Assembly (NCBI GenBank): GCA_963810275.1
Contig: CAWENF010000019.1
Location: 96,001-160,000, forward strand
Direction: 5' to 3'
From: an uncultured archaeon
GTDB lineage: Archaea; Thermoproteota; Bathyarchaeia; Bathyarchaeales; Bathycorpusculaceae
Length of the DNA stretch: 64,000 bases
Position numbers and translations under genes: made by a program. The notes under the pieces were generated by a model, which ran no database searches, was not told where the DNA came from, and was given only the letters and a program-made list of their open reading frames with translations. Positions 21,365 through 59,374 of the stretch are shown piece after piece; the stretch's first letter is position 1; each line of letters begins with the position of its first letter.

Positions 21365-22033
21365 TTGAATTTGAGCTCAAACGTTGACTCAGGCAAGACT
21401 TTAGCGGCAATAGGGTCTTTGATGCTGTTTCTCAGCTTCGTACCTGTACTCGGCATCATAGGCATCATCTTGCTGTTCGTAGGCATGAAAAACCTCTCAG
21501 ACTACTATAAAGACCCAAGCATCTATCAGCAAGCAATTAAGGGCTTAATCTTTGGCATCATCGGCGCGATAGCGGTTTCAGTACTTTCCGTAGTAAGCTT
21601 CGCAGGTATTTTCACAATCGCTACCCCCGCCAGAGCCTTAGCTACAATAGGACCCATCATAATAACCGTCGTAATCCTAATCGTTGCTTTCGCCTTCTAC
21701 CTGTTAATGGCAATTAACTTCCGACGTGCATTCAATATATTGGCGGATAAGTCAGGTGAAAACGGCTTCCGAACCGCAGGCACACTACTTTTCTGGGGTG
21801 CCGTGCTAACCATAATTGCTGTGGGTCTGATTTTGATTTGGATTGCGTGGCTTATCGCTGCCTTAGCTTTCTTCTCCCTAAAACCTGCCCAAACACAACC
21901 GCCACCCTACGCTGTACCCCCCACATCTCCGCCGCCAACACAAGCAACAAGGTACTGCCCTCACTGCGGCGCACCTAACAATGAATCTGGCACCTTCTGC
22001 ACTAACTGCGGACAACAACTTCCCCCATCCTAA
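21365..22033 (+). CDS. DUF996 membrane protein with C-terminal zinc ribbon
   Basis: KTLAAIGSL, GIILLFVGMK.LSDYY, FRTAGTLLFWGAVL; Pro-rich linker; CPHCG...FCTNCG. Confidence 0.82.
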   Translation: MNLSSNVDSGKTLAAIGSLMLFLSFVPVLGIIGIILLFVGMKNLSDYYKDPSIYQQAIKGLIFGIIGAIAVSVLSVVSFAGIFTIATPARALATIGPIIITVVILIVAFAFYLLMAINFRRAFNILADKSGENGFRTAGTLLFWGAVLTIIAVGLILIWIAWLIAALAFFSLKPAQTQPPPYAVPPTSPPPTQATRYCPHCGAPNNESGTFCTNCGQQLPPS

Positions 22034-48928: not shown

Positions 48929-50053
48929 TCACTCAATTGGCATCTGAAGTTGATTCTTGTAGTCTTCTATGACCGTTACGCCGTGGCTTCGAAATTGCGC
49001 GTCGAGGTCGGGATCGCCTGTATCTACCCGTAGGCTGCTTAGGTGGTCAAGTTTGCTTCTGGTGGCAATCACGGTTATGTTGTTTAAGCCGACTTGGCGT
49101 ATGATTTTGTTGCTGATTTGCTGGTTACCCCGCCCGAAAATGACGCCTTGCCCGCCGATGGGTGTCACAATTATTTGTGCTTTTCTGTCCGTTATTTGTT
49201 CAAGAATCTGTTTTTCATTCACGTCTCGGGCAACAATTTTCTTGTCCCGAAATATGTCCACACCTAGCAGTGTCTTCTTTTGGTCTAAGAGGTCGGCGAT
49301 GGTTCGGGTAGTTGTGCCTGGACCCACAACATAAACTGTTTCAGGTTTCATTTCATCTATGACGTAGAGGGCGATGGCTGCTTGGTTCTCTACCTCATCC
49401 ACGTTGGTGGCGCTCTCCACTTTATTGCCCTGAATCAAGTGCGGCTCAAACGGGCTAAGCATGTACCCGTACAACTCAGCGGAGAGATGTCCCCCTCGGA
49501 AGGCTTCCTCGTCAATATCCATTACCTCTGCTTCCCGAAGCGGCAGCCCTTCCCAGAGGTAGCGGATGACAACTCTAGCCGCGGCTTGGGGGCTGATGGC
49601 GAAAAGTGCACTGTGCATTTTGACGCCTGTGGGCACGCCGACTGTGGGTACTTTGAGTTCGACCACTTTTTGGATGTCGCGTGTGGTTCCGTCGCCGCCG
49701 CAGTAAATAAGTAAATCTACCCCTGCTTCAACTATAGCTTGGGCTGCGGTTTTTGTGTCCTCTGGGGCGGTTTCGGGTTTGGCTTCTCCCACGACTTTAA
49801 CATTGTAGCCGAGTTTTTTTGCTTCGGATTCCCCCATGTCGCCTCCCCCCACGATTAATTTAAGGTAGGGTTTTGCGGGCAAAAGCTCAGAGAGGAAGGT
49901 TTCGGCTCTCTGCGCCGCGACGGGTTTAGCTCCCAGCGCTCTGGCTTGTCTAAGGATTGCTGCTCCGTCGGTGCCCTTGAGTCCCACTGCTCCGCCCATG
50001 CCTGCGACGGGGTTGACTATTAAGCCGACGGTTTTGGTTTGCGGTTCCTTCAA
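48929..50053 (-). CDS. ATP-NAD kinase family protein
   Basis: NPVAGMGGAVGLKGTDG, GGDGTTRD, GVKMHS, GGQG..FGRGNQQ, VDTGD. Confidence 0.88.
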   Translation of the reverse strand: MKEPQTKTVGLIVNPVAGMGGAVGLKGTDGAAILRQARALGAKPVAAQRAETFLSELLPAKPYLKLIVGGGDMGESEAKKLGYNVKVVGEAKPETAPEDTKTAAQAIVEAGVDLLIYCGGDGTTRDIQKVVELKVPTVGVPTGVKMHSALFAISPQAAARVVIRYLWEGLPLREAEVMDIDEEAFRGGHLSAELYGYMLSPFEPHLIQGNKVESATNVDEVENQAAIALYVIDEMKPETVYVVGPGTTTRTIADLLDQKKTLLGVDIFRDKKIVARDVNEKQILEQITDRKAQIIVTPIGGQGVIFGRGNQQISNKIIRQVGLNNITVIATRSKLDHLSSLRVDTGDPDLDAQFRSHGVTVIEDYKNQLQMPIE

Positions 50054-50139
50054 CGTTGGTTAACCTGCAAAGTAATATTGCGTGAGGGTTTAATAAAAAG
50101 TAAAAGTTCCGCTGTTTCATGGTTATTTTAGGAAGGAAA

Positions 50140-50766
50140 TTAGGTGTGGAAATTGCGGTTCAAAGTTTTCAAAGTAAAAGTGGGGGTTGAGGGTTGGCTG
50201 GTTTTGGTGCGTCCTATCCAAACCGCCAGTGCGATTGCTGCGGGAATTGCACAGATTGCTGCTATCCAGATTACGATTGTAACCATGGAGCCTACGACGT
50301 AGTCCACGTTCCACGATGCGATGGCTTGCGTCCAGTTGCCATCAAGGTAGACTTTGATGGCGAATATGATGAACAGTAGCGGTGAGATTACTCTTCCAGC
50401 GTCTCTGCCCTTTGAGCGCTTGCTTTCAAGGTTGTATTGCTGTTTTTCCTGTTCGGGTATGTGTTTCCACCACTGCCAGCCGATGACTCCACCGATAGCT
50501 GCTGGGATACCTATTAGGAGGAGTTCCCAGAAGATGGCGTGCAAGATGAAGATCACAATATCCATCATCGACCACAAGCTTAGCGATGAGGGAACTAAGC
50601 CGACTGCTTGGATGTTTCCTGTGAACCAGACAAAGACGTAGATGGTCCCTGCCGCTACTAGAATAGCGGCTGAAATAAACGCCGCAAAGACCACCCAGTG
50701 GCGGCGCATGAAGAGGCGCCAGCCTGCGTCGGTTGAGATTTGATTTTGTTCGGTCATGGGTTTCAC
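50140..50766 (-). CDS. Multi-pass membrane protein of unknown function
   Basis: Four to five hydrophobic, Trp-rich segments; begins 3 bp after the DUF996 stop. Confidence 0.8.
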   Translation of the reverse strand: MKPMTEQNQISTDAGWRLFMRRHWVVFAAFISAAILVAAGTIYVFVWFTGNIQAVGLVPSSLSLWSMMDIVIFILHAIFWELLLIGIPAAIGGVIGWQWWKHIPEQEKQQYNLESKRSKGRDAGRVISPLLFIIFAIKVYLDGNWTQAIASWNVDYVVGSMVTIVIWIAAICAIPAAIALAVWIGRTKTSQPSTPTFTLKTLNRNFHT

Positions 50767-50769
50767 TTC

Positions 50770-51426
50770 TTAGACTGTTGGTTGGTCGTTTTGGGTGCCT
50801 ATTTGCTGTTGACCAGCTGGGGGTGATGTGTAGCCGTTGGTTTTCCCCTGATAGGATTGGTATTCGCGGCTCTTCATACTAAAGAAGCCGATAGTTGCGA
50901 ATATCCATGCGATGAATATCAGTAGTAAACCGATGCCACCAAGGATGGTCAGTATTGAGCCAATCCAGAGCAGTGTGCCTGCAGTGTTGAGTGATTGTTC
51001 GCCGGTTTTCTGTGCCAATGTTTCAAAGGTTTTTTTCAGGTTGGATGCTGCGAGCACGTAGAATATGAATGCGACGATTAAGCCCACAATGATTGTAACT
51101 ATGCCTGATACGATGCCTGCAGTTAAGCCCGTGATTGTGACCGCGATTGTGCCCTCAAATAACCCTGTGGTGGCGAAGATGATTAAGCCTGCGCCTGTGG
51201 CAACCGCGGCAGCGATTAAGGCGACCACATAATACTTTAGACCTGTTAAGGAGTTTCGGTAGATGCTTTCATCTTGATAGTAATATGAGAGTTCTTTTGT
51301 TGCTTTAAGGAGTAAGACTATGCCGACTATTGCCAAAACCCATCCTACATATGGGATTAAGCCGAGCAAAAGTAGAACTGCGCCTTCGCCGGCCAATGTT
51401 TTTGCGTAATTGAAGTTTACGTTCAT
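50770..51426 (-). CDS. DUF996 membrane protein
   Basis: AKTLAGEGAVL, GIVLLLKA.KELSYYY, TAGTLLWIGSILT; GGAGG upstream of ATG 51426; paralog of 21365..22033. Confidence 0.85.
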   Translation of the reverse strand: MNVNFNYAKTLAGEGAVLLLLGLIPYVGWVLAIVGIVLLLKATKELSYYYQDESIYRNSLTGLKYYVVALIAAAVATGAGLIIFATTGLFEGTIAVTITGLTAGIVSGIVTIIVGLIVAFIFYVLAASNLKKTFETLAQKTGEQSLNTAGTLLWIGSILTILGGIGLLLIFIAWIFATIGFFSMKSREYQSYQGKTNGYTSPPAGQQQIGTQNDQPTV

Positions 51427-51482
51427 TTTATTTTGCCTCCGATTTTTCGATACATCCACTATGGCTAATTTCGGATATAGCC

Positions 51483-51538
51483 CTAACATTTAGAAGACTG
51501 CCACTATTGTTTAGATGTGCAACTCTAAGGTTTAGAGT
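51483..51538. promoter_or_regulatory. Three phased palindromic operator-like sites CTA(A/T)-N3-TTAG
   Basis: CTAAcatTTAG at 51483, CTATtgtTTAG at 51504, and CTAAggtTTAG at 51525 (extended to ACTCTAA-N3-TTAGAGT, 51522-51538); 21-bp spacing. Confidence 0.65.
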
Positions 51539-51674
51539 CGCCAAAAACCCCTTATTAAGCCGCTTTTAGGTTTGAACTATATGGTTTTTGAGGATTAGCT
51601 TTTTATTTTCTAAAAGGCTATTTAGCTCCAGGGGTTTACTGTTGGGAACAAAGTCTCGAGGCATAAACGCGGAT

Positions 51675-52121
51675 ATGCAGTCGCCGCGCACACGGTTGCT
51701 TTACTTAATTTACAGTGCACCTAACAGTCGCATCAAATCTGCCCCCGGTGCCAAAAGCAGCATCAGTTCCGCATTGGGCTACAAGTCTGATGGGCATTTC
51801 CACTACGACTGGAACTACCTTCTGGGTGCAAATATGATTGAGGAGAAAAACGGCTATTACCAAGTCACTGATACAGGCAAAAAAGAGTTTGCACTGCATT
51901 CCACCGCCGCCATGAGCAACTGGATAATGGTAGTCATGGGTATAGCCATTGTGTCTTTCACTGTGGGACTGAATTATGAGTTGTTACCAGTGTGGAGTGT
52001 GTCGTTTTTCGGTGCTGCTCTGATTCTGGTCGGAGGCATGTTTCTGCTTGTGGGCAAAAAAGCTAAACCTGACCTCTCCGTTGAAGCAAAAGAACTGCTA
52101 AAAGAACTCAATAGACGCTAA
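51675..52121 (+). CDS. Winged-helix-like protein with two C-terminal TM helices
   Basis: RTRLLYLI...ISSALGY...YLL...MIEEKNGYYQVTDTGKKE (wHTH wing pattern) followed by two hydrophobic helices. Confidence 0.7.
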   Translation: MQSPRTRLLYLIYSAPNSRIKSAPGAKSSISSALGYKSDGHFHYDWNYLLGANMIEEKNGYYQVTDTGKKEFALHSTAAMSNWIMVVMGIAIVSFTVGLNYELLPVWSVSFFGAALILVGGMFLLVGKKAKPDLSVEAKELLKELNRR

Positions 52122-52156: not shown

Positions 52157-53578
52157 TTAGAGTGGTTCGCAGCCGATGTACTTCTTGGTCGCTTCGTTAA
52201 GCCAAGGATAGAGCTTGTGCAGTTTATCCATGGATTCCGCAACTCTCTCTGTGGGGTACTCGTAGGGTTGTAGTCTACCGCTGAAGTACTCCTCGTAGGC
52301 TGACATGTCAAAGAACCCGTGTCCAGTCAAAGCAAACATCAACGTCTTGGATTCGTTAGTTTCTTTGCATTGTAGGGCTCTGTCGACGACCACTTTTATA
52401 GCGTGTGCTGCTTCTGGTGCTGGAATGATGCCTTCGCTGCGGAGGAAGATTTTAGCGGCATCAAATGCCGCCACTTGGTTTACTGCAATTGTGCTGATTT
52501 TCTTTTCCTGCGCGAGCACGCTGATGGTTGGTGCAATGCCATGGTAACGTAACCCGCCTGCGTGGATGGGGGCTGGCATGAAGTCATGGCCAAGTGTGTG
52601 CATGGGCACCAGTGGGGTGAGTTTGGCGGTGTCGCCGTGGTCAAAGGTGTAGTATCCGCGGGTGACTTTAGGGCATGCGGTGGGTTCGACAGCTATGAAC
52701 TTGGTTTCTTTGGGTGCTTTCTTGCTGACTTTGTCGTGGTAGAATGGCCAGAAAAGTCCGCTAAAGCTGCTGCCTCCGCCGATGCAGCCGTAGATTTCGT
52801 CAGGGTAGTCCTCTACTATGGCGAGCTGCTTTTGAGCTTCGAGTCCAGCGACGGTTTGGTGCATGCAGACGTGGTTAAATACGCTACCGATTGTGTAGTT
52901 TGCTTTTTTGCCGGTTTTTTCGCTTTCGAGGCTGTCTTCGACTGCTTCGCTGATGGCGATGCCGAGGCTGCCTTTGTTGTCTGGGTCTTCAGCAAGGATT
53001 TTTCTGCCTGCCGCTGTTTTATCGCTGGGGCTGGCGACGCATTCCGCGCCGAAAGCAGTCATCATAGCTTTGCGATAGGGCTTCTGGTCGAAGCTTGCAC
53101 GGACCATGTAGACGGTTGCTTCCAAGCCAAACACGTTAGCTGCAAAAGACAGTGCACTGCCCCATTGACCTGCGCCTGTTTCAGTGGTGACACGGGTGAT
53201 GCCTTCTTTCATGTTATAGTAGGCTTGGGGGACAGAGCTGTTGATTTTGTGGCTGCCTGGAGGTGAGACACCTTCATATTTATAGTAGATTTTTGCTGGA
53301 GTTTTGAGTGCCTTTTCGAGGTTGAGTGCTCGGAAGAGGGGTGATGGACGCCATATGCGGTAGACTTCTCTAACTTCGTCGGGGATGTCTATCCAGCGTT
53401 CTTGGCTGATTTCTTGTCCGATGATTGCTTTAGGGAATATGCGTGGTACGATACCGACTCCGGGTTCTCCTGTTTCCGCTTCAAGGAAGGGTGGGAGCGG
53501 GTGGGGCAGGTCGGGGGCTATGTTGTACCATTTTTTTGGTATGTCTGACTCTTTAAGTAGGATTTTTTTCTCGGGCAT
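52157..53578 (-). CDS. trpB2: Tryptophan synthase beta subunit, type 2
   Basis: IPKKWYNI, WRPSPL, GSHKIN, TTETGAGQWGSAL, GSLGIAISEA, IHAGGLRYHG, PAPE. Confidence 0.96.
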   Translation of the reverse strand: MPEKKILLKESDIPKKWYNIAPDLPHPLPPFLEAETGEPGVGIVPRIFPKAIIGQEISQERWIDIPDEVREVYRIWRPSPLFRALNLEKALKTPAKIYYKYEGVSPPGSHKINSSVPQAYYNMKEGITRVTTETGAGQWGSALSFAANVFGLEATVYMVRASFDQKPYRKAMMTAFGAECVASPSDKTAAGRKILAEDPDNKGSLGIAISEAVEDSLESEKTGKKANYTIGSVFNHVCMHQTVAGLEAQKQLAIVEDYPDEIYGCIGGGSSFSGLFWPFYHDKVSKKAPKETKFIAVEPTACPKVTRGYYTFDHGDTAKLTPLVPMHTLGHDFMPAPIHAGGLRYHGIAPTISVLAQEKKISTIAVNQVAAFDAAKIFLRSEGIIPAPEAAHAIKVVVDRALQCKETNESKTLMFALTGHGFFDMSAYEEYFSGRLQPYEYPTERVAESMDKLHKLYPWLNEATKKYIGCEPL

Positions 53579-53631
53579 TTTGTTCGCCTTTTGCAGAGAA
53601 CTGTTCTTGTAAGTTTTATTTAACTCTTTTC

Positions 53632-53647
53632 TGTACATTTATGTACG
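53632..53647. promoter_or_regulatory. TRP boxes (TrpY operator)
   Basis: TGTACA-TTTA-TGTACG between the divergent trpB2 and trpY TATA elements; TGTACA is the TrpY box described in Methanothermobacter. Confidence 0.75.
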
Positions 53648-53725: not shown

Positions 53726-54229
53726 ATGTGGAGTCAAATCAGAAGCCAACTCGAAACCTACCCAGAACGCCTAAAAGTCGCCAGAGTCCTAATAGAAAAC
53801 GGTCTCTCGGCACAAGACAGCAAAATATTTCTAAACCAAATAGAAATCCCCCCAATCCGGGTCGCCCGAGTTGCAGGCGTCGACCGCAGAACAGTCAACG
53901 AAACCCTCACAACCATCCACAAGAATCCCGAACTCCGCTTAATTTTTGAAGAAATCCGCCCAGCAGGAAACTCACTAAAAGAAATCGCCAAACACCTCAA
54001 TTTGGGCGTAATTGAAATTATCCCAACCAGCGCCACAACCCGTGGAATTTTAGCAAACACTGCCCAAGCACTTAGCAAAGCGGGTCTGGGTATTCGGCAA
54101 GCGATAGTGGACGACCCAGAGCTGTCACCTGAACCCAAACTAACTCTGATTGTTGAGAGAAAAATTCCCGGTGAGTTAATCCCTGAACTGCTAAAGATTA
54201 CGGGTGTAGCAAAAGTTTCAGTTTACTAA
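53726..54229 (+). CDS. trpY: Tryptophan-responsive HTH-ACT regulator TrpY
   Basis: MW.QI....E.YP.R..VAR, VAGVDRRTV, GIL, IRQA..DDPEL..EPKL, IPG..I.ELLKI.GV.KVSVY; divergent from trpB2. Confidence 0.85.
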   Translation: MWSQIRSQLETYPERLKVARVLIENGLSAQDSKIFLNQIEIPPIRVARVAGVDRRTVNETLTTIHKNPELRLIFEEIRPAGNSLKEIAKHLNLGVIEIIPTSATTRGILANTAQALSKAGLGIRQAIVDDPELSPEPKLTLIVERKIPGELIPELLKITGVAKVSVY

Positions 54230-54278: not shown

Positions 54279-56729
54279 TTATCTGCTGAATTTTATTCCC
54301 GTATGATCTAAAATCTTGTAGAACAGTAGCTTTAGTGGGTCTGTTATAAGCAACTCTATGAAGATATATCCGAGGATGAAGAGGGCAAGCGGCCAACCTA
54401 GGGGCGAAGGAAATAGAACCCCATAAACAGTTATCAGCACAGCGGTGGTTTGGGAAAACAAGATTGCCAACCCTAGCTGCTTAGCCGGTCGTATCGACCA
54501 GAATGGGCCTCTTGTTCGGGCCATTAAAAGAGTCATTTGGCTTGCCAGAGAAAGCTTTAGGTATATGAAGGCTTGAAGTACAGCGGGGCTGAGCATGAAG
54601 ACTTCTTTGCCGATGTAGAAAGCTCCAAAGGTTATTACAACTCCAACTGTTCCAAGCATCGTAGCCATCCCTAAGACCGTGCGCATGTTCCATTTTTCAG
54701 GAGACTTCGAGTAGTGCACGTTGTCGTAAGCAATTGTTATTATCGGCAGGTCGTTTAGCAACGCCAACAAAACAATCATCACGGCGGTAATCGGGTAGAC
54801 GTTGAATAGAGAAATCGTCAGCGTTATGAAAAGGACAACTCTAATGGTTTCAGCGATTCGGTATATGGAATAATGCTGCATTCGTTGGAATATTTGCCGT
54901 GACTGTTTTACAGCATCGATAATAACGGATAACCCGGGTTTGGTGAGAGCTATATCAGCCGCCGAGCGCGCTGCATCGGTTGCCCCTGAAACAGCAATAC
55001 CTGAATCGGCCTTCTTCAAAGCTGGTGCATCATTTACGCCGTCCCCAGTCATACCCACGATATGTCCATTATTCTGCAGAGTTTCCACGATGTCGTACTT
55101 GTGCTCGGGAAAAACCTCGGCAAATCCATCAGCTTCCTCAACTATTCTTTTGGCTTTTCGGTCGGGTTTATCAATGAAAGCAGAGGGGAGAACGATGTTG
55201 GTACCTAGACCGACTTCTTTTGCGATTTCTTTGCCTATAGCAATGTGGTCGCCCGTTACCATTTTTACGGCTATACCCATTTCCTCTGCAGTTTTTATAG
55301 TCTGGGCAGAATCCGTTCTGGGAGGGTCATGAAGGGCAATTAAGCCGATGTATTCCCATGTGCCTTCTCCAACTGTTTTGGCAACGCCAAGAGCCCTATA
55401 TCCCTTGGAAGCAAAATCGGCAACATCTTTCCCAATTTGGTCCTTAACTTTATCGTTGCCTTTAGACAGCTCAAGGATCACTTGAGGAGCGCCCTTAGCA
55501 ACCTGAAATTTTTTCCCTGCAGCGTCTTCTACAGTAGCCATCGTCCGTTTCACTACGGGGTCGAAGGGCTTAAAACCAGTCACGTTGTACTGACCGAGGT
55601 TAATGTTGACTTCTTTTATGCTGCGTGTTTTAATGATTATTGCGTCGTCAATTGGATCTTTGTCTTCTTCCCTTGACGATAGAGTTCCATAGAGAAGTAT
55701 GTCTTCTTCTTTGTTTTTTGCATATGGTCGCAGTTCTGCGACGGTTAGTTTGTTTTCGGTTATAGTTCCGGTTTTATCTGCACAGAGAATGTCGATACCC
55801 GCCATTTCCTCGATGGACACCATTTTGCTGACGATTGCCTCCTTCTTTGACAGCGCAATCGCGCCAATAGCCATAGTAACTGAGAGGACTGCGGGAAGTG
55901 CAGCTGGTATGGAAGCAACGATTAAAACTAGTGCAAACTGAATCAGCGTCGAAAGGTCTTGACCTCTAAAGATGGATACCAGCATAATCACGGTGACAAG
56001 GATTACGGCAAAGAAAATCAGGTAGTCGCCGATTCTGACGACAGCTTTTTGAAAATGACTAGTGGTTCCGGATTCTTGAACCAGTTTTGTGGTTTTACCA
56101 AAATAAGTACTGGAGCCTGTGCTAACTACCAGTCCCTCCATTTCACCCATTTTGATTATAGAACTGGAGTAGGCGACATCGGCGGGATGTTTATCAACCG
56201 GGAGTGATTCGCCGGTAAGTGCAGATTCATCTGCCTGCAGATAGTCACCCTCTATGAGTTTGAGGTCTGCGGGAACTATGTCGCCCAATCGAACACGCAC
56301 AACATCTCCGGGCACTAGCTCCTTTGAGGGCTTCTGAATCCATTTACTGTCTCTTAGCACACGCGCTGTGGGCGAGAGCCGCTTTTGCAGGGCTTCTATT
56401 GCGTTGCCTGCTTGCCGTTCCTCCCAGAAGCCAACTATCGCATTCATGAATAGCAACAGGAGAATTATGCCGAAAGAGGATACATCACGCAGGATGGCTG
56501 ACATCACAACGGCGGCTTCGATCATGAATGGTATGGGACCCCAAAAATAACTGAGAAATTTAACTATTGGGTTGACTTTTTTTTCGGCGATGTCGTTGGG
56601 ACCATATTTTTGGAGTCGCTTCGCTGCTTCCTCAGAGGAAAGACCATTTTTATTTGCTGATAGCACCTCGAATATTTTATCAGCACTGGTCTTCTTCGCT
56701 TCCTCTGTAGATATGGAAACTTCTCCCAA
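54279..56729 (-). CDS. P-type H+-exporting ATPase, type IIIA (copy 1)
   Basis: FWGPIPFMIE, LTGES, CADKTGT, DPID, KGAPQ, MVTGD, GDGVNDAPAL, LLND. Confidence 0.93.
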   Translation of the reverse strand: MGEVSISTEEAKKTSADKIFEVLSANKNGLSSEEAAKRLQKYGPNDIAEKKVNPIVKFLSYFWGPIPFMIEAAVVMSAILRDVSSFGIILLLLFMNAIVGFWEERQAGNAIEALQKRLSPTARVLRDSKWIQKPSKELVPGDVVRVRLGDIVPADLKLIEGDYLQADESALTGESLPVDKHPADVAYSSSIIKMGEMEGLVVSTGSSTYFGKTTKLVQESGTTSHFQKAVVRIGDYLIFFAVILVTVIMLVSIFRGQDLSTLIQFALVLIVASIPAALPAVLSVTMAIGAIALSKKEAIVSKMVSIEEMAGIDILCADKTGTITENKLTVAELRPYAKNKEEDILLYGTLSSREEDKDPIDDAIIIKTRSIKEVNINLGQYNVTGFKPFDPVVKRTMATVEDAAGKKFQVAKGAPQVILELSKGNDKVKDQIGKDVADFASKGYRALGVAKTVGEGTWEYIGLIALHDPPRTDSAQTIKTAEEMGIAVKMVTGDHIAIGKEIAKEVGLGTNIVLPSAFIDKPDRKAKRIVEEADGFAEVFPEHKYDIVETLQNNGHIVGMTGDGVNDAPALKKADSGIAVSGATDAARSAADIALTKPGLSVIIDAVKQSRQIFQRMQHYSIYRIAETIRVVLFITLTISLFNVYPITAVMIVLLALLNDLPIITIAYDNVHYSKSPEKWNMRTVLGMATMLGTVGVVITFGAFYIGKEVFMLSPAVLQAFIYLKLSLASQMTLLMARTRGPFWSIRPAKQLGLAILFSQTTAVLITVYGVLFPSPLGWPLALFILGYIFIELLITDPLKLLFYKILDHTGIKFSR

Positions 56730-56967: not shown

Positions 56968-59374
56968 TTGAGTAAATCCAATTCTTACATTATGTGGTTT
57001 GATGACGTCAACATAAACGACGTCCCCAAAGTCGGAGGAAAAAACGCTTCACTCGGAGAAATGATAAGGTCCATACGAAAAGAGGGCATCCGTATTCCCA
57101 ACGGATTTGCCACAACCGCCAAGCTCTACTGGGACCTAGTCGACAAGAACGGCTTAAGAGTAAAAATTGAGTCTCTGCTTCAAGACCTAATCAAAGAGAA
57201 AAACCGCTAAAAGATGTCGGCGCAGCTATCCGCCAGTTGTTCCTTGACCCCCTTTCCTCCCGAGATTGAAGGGGAAATCACAAAGGCATACGATGGGTTA
57301 TGTGAACGCTACGAAACAAAGGATGTGGATGTTGCGGTTAGGAGCAGCGCTACAGCAGAGGATCTTCCGGGAGCAAGTTTTGCGGGGCAGCAGGAGAGTT
57401 ACCTAAACGTTAGAGGGAAACCGCAGCTTCTTTATGCCTGCAAGAAATGCTTCGCATCGCTGTTTACTGATAGAGCCATAACTTATCGTGCCGAGCAGGG
57501 GTTTGAGCACATGAAGGTGGCGCTTTCTATTGGCATAATGAAGATGGTGCGTTCAGATTTGGCAGGTAGCGGCGTCATGTTCACTTTGGACACCGAGACA
57601 GGTTTTCCTAAAACGATAATAATCAACGCAGGGTGGGGGCTGGGTGAGTATATCGTGAAAGGCGAAATTAACCCCGATCGCTATGTCGTTTTTAAGCCTC
57701 CGCTTGGTGACCTAAAGATGGTTCCGATTTTAGAGAAGGCGTTGGGTACAAAAGAGAAGAAGCTCGTATACTCTGACTACGGGGACGACTCGACCAAGAA
57801 CGTTGAAACGGCGCAGCAGGAACGGGAAGCCTTCGTTCTTTCCGAGGAAGAAATTTTGTTGTTAGCGCGGTGGGGTCTGCGCATTGAAGCGCATTACAAG
57901 CGCCCAATGGATATTGAGTGGGCTAAAGATGGCGAACGTAATGAACTCTACATCGTGCAGGCGAGGCCTGAAACCGTGCAGAGTAGATTCAAAGAATCCA
58001 GCGGCTTAATGTCCTACAACCTCAAGGAAAAAGGCAAAGAACTCATAACGGGCATCAGTATCGGTCAAGCAATCGCCACAGGAAAGGTATGCAAGATTCT
58101 TGATGCAGCAAACATTGACCAATTCAAGAAGGGAGCTATCTTAGTTACCAAAATGACTGACCCAGATTGGGTCACTATCATGAAGGAGGCATCAGGCATA
58201 ATAACTGACTTTGGCGGTCGCACTTCCCATGCAGCCATAGTCAGCAGAGAACTCGGGATCACCTGCCATAGTGGGCACGGAGCGAGCTACCGAGGTTCTC
58301 CAGCCCGACCAAGCAATCACTATGTCCTGTGCTGAAGGAGAAACGGGGCATGTTTATGAAGGCATTTTAAAGTTTGACAAAACAAAAGTTGACATCAAGG
58401 GAATCCCTAAAACGAAAACTCAGATTATGATGAACATGGCTAGCCCCGATGCCGCCTACCGCTGGTGGCGCTTGCCCTGTGAAGGTATAGGCTTAGCACG
58501 AATGGAGTTCATAATAAACAACCTCATTAAAATCCATCCGATGGCGCTTATCAAGTTTAGCACCCTAAAAGATGAGGAGGCAATTGCCCAAATAAACGAG
58601 TTAACAAAGGGCTACAAAGACAAAACAGAGTACTTCGTGGACAACTTAGCTAAAGGAATCGCCCGCATAGCATCCGCACAGTACCCATACCCAGTCATCG
58701 TAAGAATGAGCGACTTCAAAACAAACGAGTACGCCAACCTTATAGGTGGAAAAACCTTTGAACCAAAAGAAGACAACCCAATGCTTGGCTTTAGGGGTGC
58801 CAGCAGATACTACAGCGATAGGTACCGAGAAGGGTTCGCGTTGGAGTGCCGTGCCATTAAGCGCGCAAGAGAAGAAATCGGGTTAGCTAACGTGGTTGTG
58901 ATGATTCCTTTCTGCAGAACTGTTGAAGAAGCACAGAAGGTAATCAAGGTGATGGCTGATAACGGTATAGAGCGCGGAAAAGGCGACTTTGAAGTCTATG
59001 TAATGGCGGAGATACCTTCAAACATTATCTTGGCTGACAAGTTTGCCGCTTTCTTCGATGGCTTCTCAGTGGGCTCTAACGATTTGACTCAGCTAGTACT
59101 TGGGATTGATAGGGATTCAGCCGAGCTAGCTTACTTGTTTGATGAACGCAACGAAGCAGTGAAAGACGCTATCAAATCGCTCATCGAAGTCGCCCACGCA
59201 CACACACCGCGGCGAAAAGTAGGGATTTGCGGGCAAGCACCCAGCGACTACCCTGACTTCGCAGCTTTTCTAGTCCGGTTGGGCATTGATTCTATCTCAG
59301 TTAACCCTGACAGCGTTATAGACGTGAAGAAGCGTGTGGCAGAAACAGAAAAGGAGACCTCGCAGCAGAAATAG
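56968..59374 (+). pseudogene. ppsA: Second phosphoenolpyruvate synthase, interrupted by three single-base indels
   Basis: VGGKNASLGEM; VAVRSSATAEDLP; GGRTSHAAIVSRELG; GIGLARMEF; NPMLGFRGASRY; GICGQAPSD. Frame breaks at the A5 run 57199-57203, the C5 run 57248-57252 and near 58261. Confidence 0.88.

Follow-up and report, generated by a model that had tools for sequence, protein, structure and literature searches.

We analysed a window of 64,000 nucleotides from an uncultured archaeon of the Bathycorpusculaceae (Bathyarchaeia; contig CAWENF010000019.1, positions 96,001 to 160,000). Between window positions 50140 and 52121, a gene for a 159-residue protein that joins a modelled winged helix to a two-helix membrane hairpin diverges from two genes for membrane proteins, and three palindromic dyads lie between them (Table 1; all coordinates are those of the window unless a contig is named). 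We refer to the protein as the putative regulator. A sequence-only reading of the same DNA had placed three CTA(A/T)-N3-TTAG dyads at 51483, 51504 and 51525 and had proposed that the protein is a membrane-tethered repressor whose dyads cover the transcription start site (TSS) and leader of the divergent operon. The coordinates match the sequence, and the starts of the three dyads are spaced at exactly 21 bp; the proposed role and the position of the promoter are weighed below.

Table 1. Coordinates of the genes, dyads and candidate promoter elements of the locus (aa, amino acids; ORF, open reading frame; BRE, TFB-recognition element; AF2, AlphaFold2)
Feature	Position	Strand	Basis or remark
MP2, multi-pass membrane protein, 205 aa, second gene of the predicted operon	50140..50757	-	ORF
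DUF996 membrane protein, 218 aa, first gene of the predicted operon	50770..51426	-	PF06195
Shine-Dalgarno-like GGAGG of the DUF996 gene	51436..51440	-	sequence; present in most DUF996-linked arrays
TATA-like GGCTATAT (plus strand ATATAGCC), proposed weak core promoter	51475..51482	-	invariance, position
Site 1, CTAACATTTAG	51483..51493	.	nearly invariant; abuts or overlaps the BRE position
Site 2, CTATTGTTTAG	51504..51514	.	variable middle site, left arm imperfect
Site 3, core CTAAGGTTTAG (51525-51535), whole palindrome CTCTAAGGTTTAGAG	51523..51537	.	perfect 15 bp
A-rich stretch and TTATTAAG, contains TTAATAA, candidate promoter	51543..51560	+	matrix score 6.3 on the plus strand vs 1.9 on the minus strand
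GATTAGCTTTTTATTTT, second candidate BRE/TATA of the putative regulator gene	51593..51609	+	sequence; matrix score 3.5
Membrane-tethered winged-helix protein, 159 aa + stop	51642..52121	+	AF2 model, structure matches, hydropathy

The first gene of the divergent pair encodes a DUF996 protein (E 1.6e-21; 77.4 bits, cut-off 31.3; the match covers the whole profile, positions 1-138 of 138). Its start is likely ATG 51426 (MNVNF...) and not 51489, because GGAGG stands ahead of MNVNF and this start is conserved in relatives. MP2 lies 13 nt past the DUF996 stop, and the two genes are probably co-transcribed. MP2 belongs to no Pfam or NCBIfam family, and its nearest Atlas clusters are unnamed Bathyarchaeota hypothetical proteins; NCBIfam also gave nothing useful for the DUF996 protein or the putative regulator, and no paper in the literature searched mentions DUF996. 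The view of the targets as uncharacterised membrane proteins, taken in the sequence-only reading, is upheld. Membership in DUF996 is confirmed, MP2 has no family, and arrays in relatives precede other envelope genes.

A winged-helix protein with a membrane hairpin

The sequence-only reading had described a divergent winged-helix-like protein with two C-terminal transmembrane (TM) helices that starts at 51675. The fold and the helices are modelled as described, and the start is revised. TTG 51642 is more likely than ATG 51675, because relatives are 156-160 residues long and conserve (M)xKSRGI(S/N)ADIQ upstream of that ATG, a position that reads ATA, ATT or TTG in many of them. AF2 modelling from a 24-row alignment (predicted local distance difference test score, pLDDT, 80.5) returned a winged-helix fold with elements in the order H-E-H-H-E-E-H (H15-25, E30-32, H37-44, H50-62, E66-69, E72-75 and H77-89), followed by two long helices at 93-111 and 119-140 and a last helix at 147-158. 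All top rows in Foldseek and VIA searches were winged-helix DNA binders, namely the CggR DNA-binding domain (DBD), MarR and AspA. VIA aligned residues 1-91 at Z 8.0-8.5, with a root-mean-square deviation of 2.6-4.3 A over 77-85 residues (structures 4b8x, 4rs8, 8r3g and others), with the caveat that a Z near 8 can reflect a common arrangement. The best Foldseek E value of the whole model was 0.037, a score diluted by the membrane helices.

The resulting layout is a winged helix at about residues 8-91, TM1 at 93-111, a 7-residue loop outside the cell, TM2 at 119-140 and a cytoplasmic C-terminal helix at 147-158. The TM calls rest on the model together with hydropathy, the Kyte-Doolittle profile having peaks (19-residue mean of at least 1.6) at 88-115 and 112-141. 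Lysine and arginine residues occupy both cytoplasmic flanks and are missing from the 7-residue loop, which places the N and C termini inside. The winged helix ends near residue 91, two residues ahead of TM1, which leaves no space for a sensor domain. Among homologs, residues H52, F53, H54, D56, W57, N58 and Y59 of the recognition helix are invariant, as is the CTAA/TTAG core of the dyads, and so are N93, G100, P116, G124, G131 and P143 of the membrane hairpin.

The family comprises 67 clusters at 50% identity among 1.84 billion protein representatives, nearly all of 145-180 residues and of the same architecture, and not one of 773 homologs is named or carries a Pfam domain. We compared the family with the Pfam models of MarR (PF01047, PF12802 and HTH_27), EarA-like proteins (PF07381), PadR (PF03551) and HTH_45 (PF14947). 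The window protein matched none of the three MarR models at the curated threshold. Among 26 distant family members, one (P0174) passed the EarA PF07381 cut-off (23.6 against 22 bits), three gave sub-threshold PadR matches and ten sub-threshold HTH_45 matches, and the HTH_27 match of one member (19.2 bits) remained under the 22.2 cut-off. Prediction of a homodimer from two copies gave scores of 0.07 and 0.09, below the 0.42 mark, and returns no verdict either way.

A phased array of palindromic sites that follows the protein

In the window, single CTAWNNNTTAG dyads are mildly enriched (9 strand-matches against a shuffle mean of 3.2, with 1 of 100 shuffles reaching 9), and dyads paired at 21-bp spacing with up to 2 mismatches give 2 overlapping matches, against none in 100 shuffles. 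A scan of the whole genome of 2,257,982 bases (2.26 Mb) found the paired pattern at this array only, and the reversed-pattern control gave 0, so that the array is single-copy. As the sequence-only reading had stated, dyads of this kind are missing around the other DUF996 gene of the window (21365..22033). Apart from site 3, the genome contains one perfect CTCTAA-N3-TTAGAG palindrome, at 201347-201361 of contig C21 (genome G000); it is solitary, has neither TATAGCC nor a second site, and was set aside as a probable chance occurrence. A single perfect CTAA-N3-TTAG palindrome, CTAAACGTTAG, also occurs in the window at 57403-57413, distant from the array.

To judge by the source names of homologs and by Atlas taxa, the organism belongs to a Bathyarchaeota-like genus. 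All loci of this genus yielded 61 unique segments, one of them a likely chance match, which leaves 60 arrays. Extra sites were counted as matches to CTAANNNTTAG with at most 1 mismatch at offsets of +8 to +99 from site 1. Across the 61 segments, 82 of 84 extra sites fall at +21 (33 sites), +22 (2), +31/32 (12), +42/43 (23) or +52-54 (12), and 2 fall elsewhere. The commonest layouts are a single extra site at 21 (17 arrays) and sites at 21 and 42 (15). They are followed by 42 only, with the middle site decayed (7), 32 and 53 (7), 32 and 54 (2) and 31 and 52 (2); five layouts were seen once each (15 and 21; 22; 22 and 43; 32; 54), and six arrays have no second site. Helical phase is kept across six spacing layouts: indels of 10-11 bp are tolerated in the array and other lengths essentially are not. 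The arrays are related by descent, so the layout counts are not independent events, and it is the distinct phase-keeping layouts that constitute real evidence. The proposal that the dyads lie on one face of the DNA is borne out by spacings of 21, 31/32, 42 and 52-54 bp, and both the dyads and their spacing are conserved among the arrays of the genus.

Conservation extends to the letters of the sites. Site 1 carries close to 2 bits of information at most positions, and its sequence GCCCTAACATTTAGA is kept in 79 of 120 genomes of the genus. The last sites have the consensus CTCTAAGgGTTAGAG (55 arrays), in which the arms outside the searched core are conserved too, and the middle sites are the least conserved and are missing from two-site arrays. 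The palindrome consensus is CTCTAA-N3-TTAGAG, 15 bp long. Two intergenic blocks, WTATAGCCCTAACATTTAGA and CTCTAAGGGTTAGAG, are kept almost letter for letter while the DNA between them drifts. No informative compensatory change was found between the arms: there is 1 A-T among 55 at pair 1, and the other losses are one-sided; 7 of 55 last sites, for instance, have ATAG in place of TTAG. Rfam gave no match in the array region. Arms conserved as sequence without covariation, together with the lack of an Rfam match, argue that the array binds a protein and is not an RNA structure. As a separate observation, loci L057, L063, L065 and L066 share TTAGA(C/T)GC(A/G/T)AAAAT(C/T)CG 35-50 nt past the last palindrome, before genes for small membrane proteins.

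The distribution of the sites follows that of the protein. Searches for the putative regulator gave matches in 19 of the 36 other genomes of the genus and in none of 24 genomes from other families of the order; class-wide, 12 of 301 genomes had one. DUF996 is divergent from it in 17 of 19 loci and MP2 lies downstream of DUF996 in about 10 of 17 (1.5-kb flanks). In the same set of 120 genomes, the 18-mer TATAGCCCTAACANTTAG (at most 1 mismatch) is present in 79 (reversed control, 0) and a profile of the regulator matches 86. The 18-mer occurs in 79 of the 86 regulator-positive genomes and in none of the 34 regulator-free ones, unlinked positions included. The seven genomes with a regulator match and no 18-mer comprise gene fragments, a contig end, a dubious 36-residue match and two paralog-type genes, and degenerate arrays are present in one of the paralog-type genomes (G023, locus L020). 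Arrays occur also at places unlinked to the regulator gene, up to six per genome, in regulator-positive genomes only; the maximum, six copies of the array cassette, was found in G007. In regulator-free genomes, the nearest DUF996 ortholog stands behind an ordinary promoter (AAAAGCTTTTAT; AAAAGCTTTTATC), without dyads or MP2.

A 38%-identical relative from another family of the order offers a single case of an altered arrangement, in which a small membrane protein and the regulator gene are encoded in the same direction. Its site pair, CTATATTATAG located 22 bp before CCAAAAAATAG, which is fused to GCTATAAAG and followed after 34 nt by ATG, has the same architecture with a diverged half-site.

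Five genomes (G020, G106, G125, G130 and G131) retain the 18-mer and carry a regulator gene with 1 to 5 in-frame stops; these genes may be recent pseudogenes or reflect assembly errors. A paralog type of the regulator, 54-60% identical and with the recognition helix GHFHHDWNYL, is found in L055 (G029:C3), L020 (G023) and L093 (G337). Nearby arrays carry the variants CTACC...TTAG and CTAAG..ATAG and face a 79-86-residue membrane protein with an (E/D)HP(E/A) motif, and in the distant relative L094 the gene of this small protein stands ahead of the regulator gene. We considered covariation between the paralog (Y55H) and the CTACC/ATAG variants and rejected it, because genomes with only the canonical regulator carry these variants too.

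Promoter position and competing explanations

WTATAGCC is fused to site 1 in all 60 arrays, and a gene start always lies on that side; read on the other strand, GGCTATAW is the one element invariant in 60 of 60 arrays, with a start codon 34-59 nt off in most. In the 46 arrays that face DUF996, the start is 44-59 nt away behind GGAGG wherever the start-picking heuristic worked; in 4 of them the heuristic took the wrong frame, and the true start is visible in the sequence. A further 13 arrays precede other genes and one has no facing ORF. The start is 34-42 nt away in arrays before membrane proteins of 57-86 residues and 34 nt away before a PAP2 phosphatase. Four arrays precede polysaccharide pyruvyl transferase genes, at 56 nt in one (L071) and with the first long ORF at 128-181 nt in three, and in an array before an ABC ATPase the first long ORF is 138 nt away. 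In L004, a 175-bp insertion parts the regulator gene from the array, which remains with DUF996, and in L056 and L060 the array serves DUF996 where the regulator gene is missing between it and the convergent TrpB-like gene. GGCTATAW is the only candidate core promoter common to all targets, which argues that the dyads lie upstream of the core promoter and that their placement over the DUF996 TSS and leader, as proposed in the sequence-only reading, is probably wrong.

With the GGCTATAW centre at about 51477.5, transcription is predicted to start near 51451 and to leave a leader of about 25 nt; the centres of the sites would then fall at about -37, -58 and -79, the sites spanning about -37 to -86. 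We consider this proximal-promoter layout the likelier of the two arrangements. The explanation that we favour, and hold to be probable, is that of a membrane-tethered regulator on a phased operator upstream of the GGCTATAT promoter. The protein would be a minimal transmembrane transcription regulator, built from a cytoplasmic winged helix, almost no linker, a two-helix hairpin and a short cytoplasmic tail. Its dimers would occupy two or three palindromes of 15 bp, all on the same DNA face and immediately upstream of the weak, non-consensus core promoter of the DUF996-MP2 operon, from where the regulator may help the TATA-binding protein (TBP) and transcription factor B (TFB) onto the promoter. 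A signal perceived at the membrane would in this way be coupled to the expression of envelope proteins, whether by activation or repression. With a linker of nearly nil, the DNA would have to come to the membrane, each dimer approaching from one side. Strict helical phasing fits such an approach and is no proof of it, as soluble cooperative factors prefer one face too. The data show the sites with their conservation and phasing, the fold, the membrane helices and the co-occurrence of protein and sites; the binding of the sites by this protein, its dimeric state, the TSS position, the sign of regulation and the signal are inferences.

Several results weigh against this explanation. A BRE/TATA matrix derived from 33 tRNA upstream regions of the genome, and thus trained on tRNA genes only, gives GGCTATAW a median of -0.4, against 9.6 for the tRNA promoters and 1.4 for random 60-mers. 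The assignment of GGCTATAT as a TATA box rests on its invariance and position, and the element could instead be part of the protein's site. Elements that resemble promoters also occur on the far side of the array: TTTGCTTATGAC abuts the last site in 20 of 61 arrays, all linked to DUF996, and xCTTAAw lies 24-29 nt past the last site in 7 of 61, the TTAATAA of the window included. If these elements fire toward DUF996, the sites cover the TSS, as had been proposed. Site 1 abuts the BRE position, which is a classic position for a repressor too. An RNA library contains contigs of 151 and 222 nt that lie within MP2 and DUF996 at 100% identity, have neither ends nor strand, may stem from DNA carry-over and are therefore silent on the TSS. 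The window protein matches no helix-turn-helix (HTH) family in Pfam at E values up to 0.1, and a PDB sequence search with the regulator profile returned chance-level rows only. Finally, the co-occurrence of regulator and sites is partly expected from physical linkage and shared descent.

The strongest competitor is the model of the sequence-only reading, in which the promoter lies past site 3 (TTAATAA at 51552-51558, TTTGCTTATGAC in other relatives), the protein acts as a cooperative repressor or roadblock, and GGCTATAT belongs to the operator or serves as a second, proximal promoter. A TATA centre at 51555 would put the transcription start within site 3 (about 51529). Promoter-like elements past the last site in 27 of 61 arrays speak for this model, as do their cores GCTTAT and GCTTAA, which resemble the tRNA promoter cores of this genome, and the relative from another family likewise has ATTAATTAG, which is AT-rich, about 10 nt past its distal site. 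However, these elements are found in DUF996-linked arrays only and are missing from the 13 arrays before other genes, whereas GGCTATAW is universal. TTAATAA exists as described, but it is kept in the subclade of the window only (7 of 61 arrays have a comparable element), and its matrix score is higher on the plus strand (6.3) than on the minus strand (1.9). The leader would also be unusually long, about 100 nt, though the Shine-Dalgarno-led gene begins only about 50 nt from GGCTATAT. The tRNA-derived matrix singled out no promoter in 240-nt array segments and cannot separate the two candidates. On this evidence, we regard a promoter past site 3 as unlikely. The TTATTAAG region is more likely a promoter toward the regulator gene; TTAATAA may serve the regulator gene itself or act as a second promoter of DUF996, a distal one that bound protein would block. 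The other candidate for the regulator gene, GATTAGCTTTTTATTTT, has TTTATCTT or TTTTTAT at the same position in relatives and would place the regulator TSS about 10 nt before TTG 51642.

Within the favoured explanation, the sign of regulation is less certain. The layout closely matches that of archaeal activators bound upstream of the BRE, such as ArnR, and we therefore lean slightly toward activation of a weak promoter. The repressor role of the sequence-only reading is not favoured, the predicted sites lying upstream of the core promoter in an activator-like position; occlusion of BRE and TFB remains a serious alternative, with site 1 touching the BRE position. As to the signal, the mere 7 residues outside the cell would leave three routes of perception: within the membrane, as put forward for BcrR (PMC3968067), through the conserved hairpin, or through contact with the membrane proteins under control. 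A more tentative reading, which we consider possible and on balance doubtful, is that of a sensor-less minimal envelope switch, in which the hairpin, or its contact with the DUF996 and MP2 products, reads the state of the membrane. On the same reading, the approach of every dimer from the membrane side would confine the operator to changes of whole helical turns, which would account for the 10-11 bp indels, and the targets in the genus would form an envelope-stress-like regulon of DUF996, small membrane proteins, a PAP2 lipid phosphatase, a glycan pyruvyl transferase and an ABC transporter.

The array might instead be the operator of a different, soluble factor; the winged-helix protein would then be a linked gene product of the same cassette with another role, such as tethering DNA to the membrane or making protein contacts. 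Arrays do serve genes away from the regulator (L056, L060 and the 13 other targets), and the five genomes with stops in the regulator gene keep the array. We nevertheless judge a separate factor quite improbable, given that none of the 34 regulator-free genomes has the site anywhere, that the divergent arrangement recurs in 17 of 19 loci and has an altered counterpart in another family, that palindromes suit a dimeric winged helix, and that the recognition helix is invariant like the CTAA/TTAG core. That the dyads are RNA hairpins in a 5' leader or small RNA, or remnants of a short mobile repeat, is very improbable: site 3 can fold into a 6-bp stem with a 3-nt loop and the cassette reaches its six copies in G007, but, besides the lack of covariation and of an Rfam match, the orientation and start-codon distance are always the same, the spacing is kept as helical phase, which is relevant to DNA and not to separate hairpins, and there are no terminal repeats or target duplications.

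Surroundings, known systems and meaning

The module is flanked by a NAD-kinase-like gene at 48929-50053 on the minus strand (PF01513/PF20143) and a 493-residue PALP (TrpB-like) gene at 52157-53638, also on the minus strand. The gene order NAD kinase, MP2, DUF996, array, regulator and TrpB-like gene is common to several relatives, the regulator being missing in L056 and L060. Between MP2 and the NAD-kinase-like gene, at 50054-50139, the minus strand reads CTTTTACTTTTTATTAAACC, which could be both an oligo-T terminator of the operon and the BRE/TATA of the next gene. Farther away, a 167-residue ORF at 53726-54229 on the plus strand has a very weak HTH_38 match (E 0.076) and may encode a small regulator; it adjoins a P-type ATPase gene (54279..56729).

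The closest described architecture is that of ArnR, an experimentally studied protein, and ArnR1 of Sulfolobus acidocaldarius; both are one-component regulators that sit in the membrane and activate the archaellum operon (PMC6396743). Their ArnR boxes are two 15-bp inverted repeats, TCGAC-N5-GTCGA, located at -43 to -84 of the flaB promoter and both needed for binding (PMC6396743). Shared with the window protein are the archaeal host, the N-terminal HTH, the two C-terminal TM helices and inverted-repeat targets of 15 bp (PMC6396743); sites upstream of BRE/TATA would be a further resemblance if GGCTATAT is the TATA box. In ArnR as described, the HTH is separated from the TM helices by a HAMP-like and a sensor domain, both absent from the window protein (winged helix to 91, TM1 at 93). 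The palindrome spacer here is N3, and the targets are DUF996 and envelope genes, not pili. The comparison is drawn from the published architecture and sites.

More broadly, a census counted 1,384 archaeal transmembrane transcription regulators (TTRs) in 367 of 404 species, about four per genome, and about 17% of all TTRs have two TM regions (PMC10269533). The census defines the class by a DNA-binding domain combined with one or more TM regions (PMC10269533). The window protein fits this definition, its DNA-binding domain being recognised at the level of fold only; regulation of transcription from within the membrane, which the class demands, would be its predicted mode of action. The census used recognisable DNA-binding models (PMC10269533), so that the window protein, which has no Pfam domain at threshold, would probably escape it. 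The statement that this is not a described system goes too far: membrane-bound one-component regulators, ArnR/ArnR1 and the TTRs, are in print, and the family itself appears undescribed. A literature search for membrane-bound winged-helix factors of Bathyarchaeota returned nothing relevant, the supplementary tables of the TTR census lying outside the search.

In bacteria, BcrR of Enterococcus faecalis is described as a one-component transmembrane sensor of bacitracin that has no obvious extracellular domain and perceives its stimulus directly (PMC3968067). It controls an ABC transporter for envelope protection (PMC3968067), and arrays in relatives of our locus precede an ABC ATPase and a PAP2 phosphatase. 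Among the TTRs, ToxR, CadC and TcpP cross the membrane once and carry a sensor domain in the periplasm, whereas the DNA-binding domain is the only domain of the window protein, which has none outside the cytoplasm. BcrR is bacterial and the window protein archaeal. The two presumably differ also in the type of HTH and the number of TM helices.

With respect to promoter architecture, binding sites of archaeal activators typically lie upstream of the BRE, in promoters with a non-consensus BRE/TATA (PMC5512572; PMC4706686), and TrmBL1 is an activator when bound upstream of the promoter and a repressor when bound downstream of it (PMC4706686). EarA (PF07381), Ptr2 and TFB-RF1 likewise have multiple sites just upstream of a non-consensus BRE/TATA and recruit TFB or TBP, but they are soluble, and the EarA sites are 6-bp repeats, not palindromes (PMC5512572). 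The window protein gives no match to EarA PF07381 at E values up to 0.1. MarR, PadR/AspA and the CggR DBD share the fold of residues 1-91 without sequence-level membership; these proteins are soluble and dimerise through extra helices that the window protein lacks.

Membrane-bound one-component regulators are already known as a class in bacteria and archaea. What appears to be new is the regulator family, which has no Pfam model and no names among its 773 homologs, together with the minimal sensor-less build, a defined operator that evolves with its phase preserved, and a small envelope regulon. Bathyarchaeia are abundant and uncultured, and to our knowledge almost nothing is known of gene regulation in them; the locus provides a concrete candidate regulator-operator pair, with a 91-residue soluble domain and a 65-bp DNA fragment, and makes a clear prediction for half-turn insertions between the sites. 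If the regulator activates by recruitment, stimulation would vanish once a strong AAAGCTTTTAT promoter replaces GGCTATAT and its BRE. How TTRs reach DNA and sense without a sensor domain is an open question for the class (PMC10269533, PMC3968067), and the phase-preserving indels are a natural experiment on it. Should the tentative reading of a sensor-less switch be true, the protein would be an archaeal counterpart of BcrR-type intramembrane sensing. Independently of that reading, the small regulon ties the uncharacterised DUF996 family to functions of the envelope.

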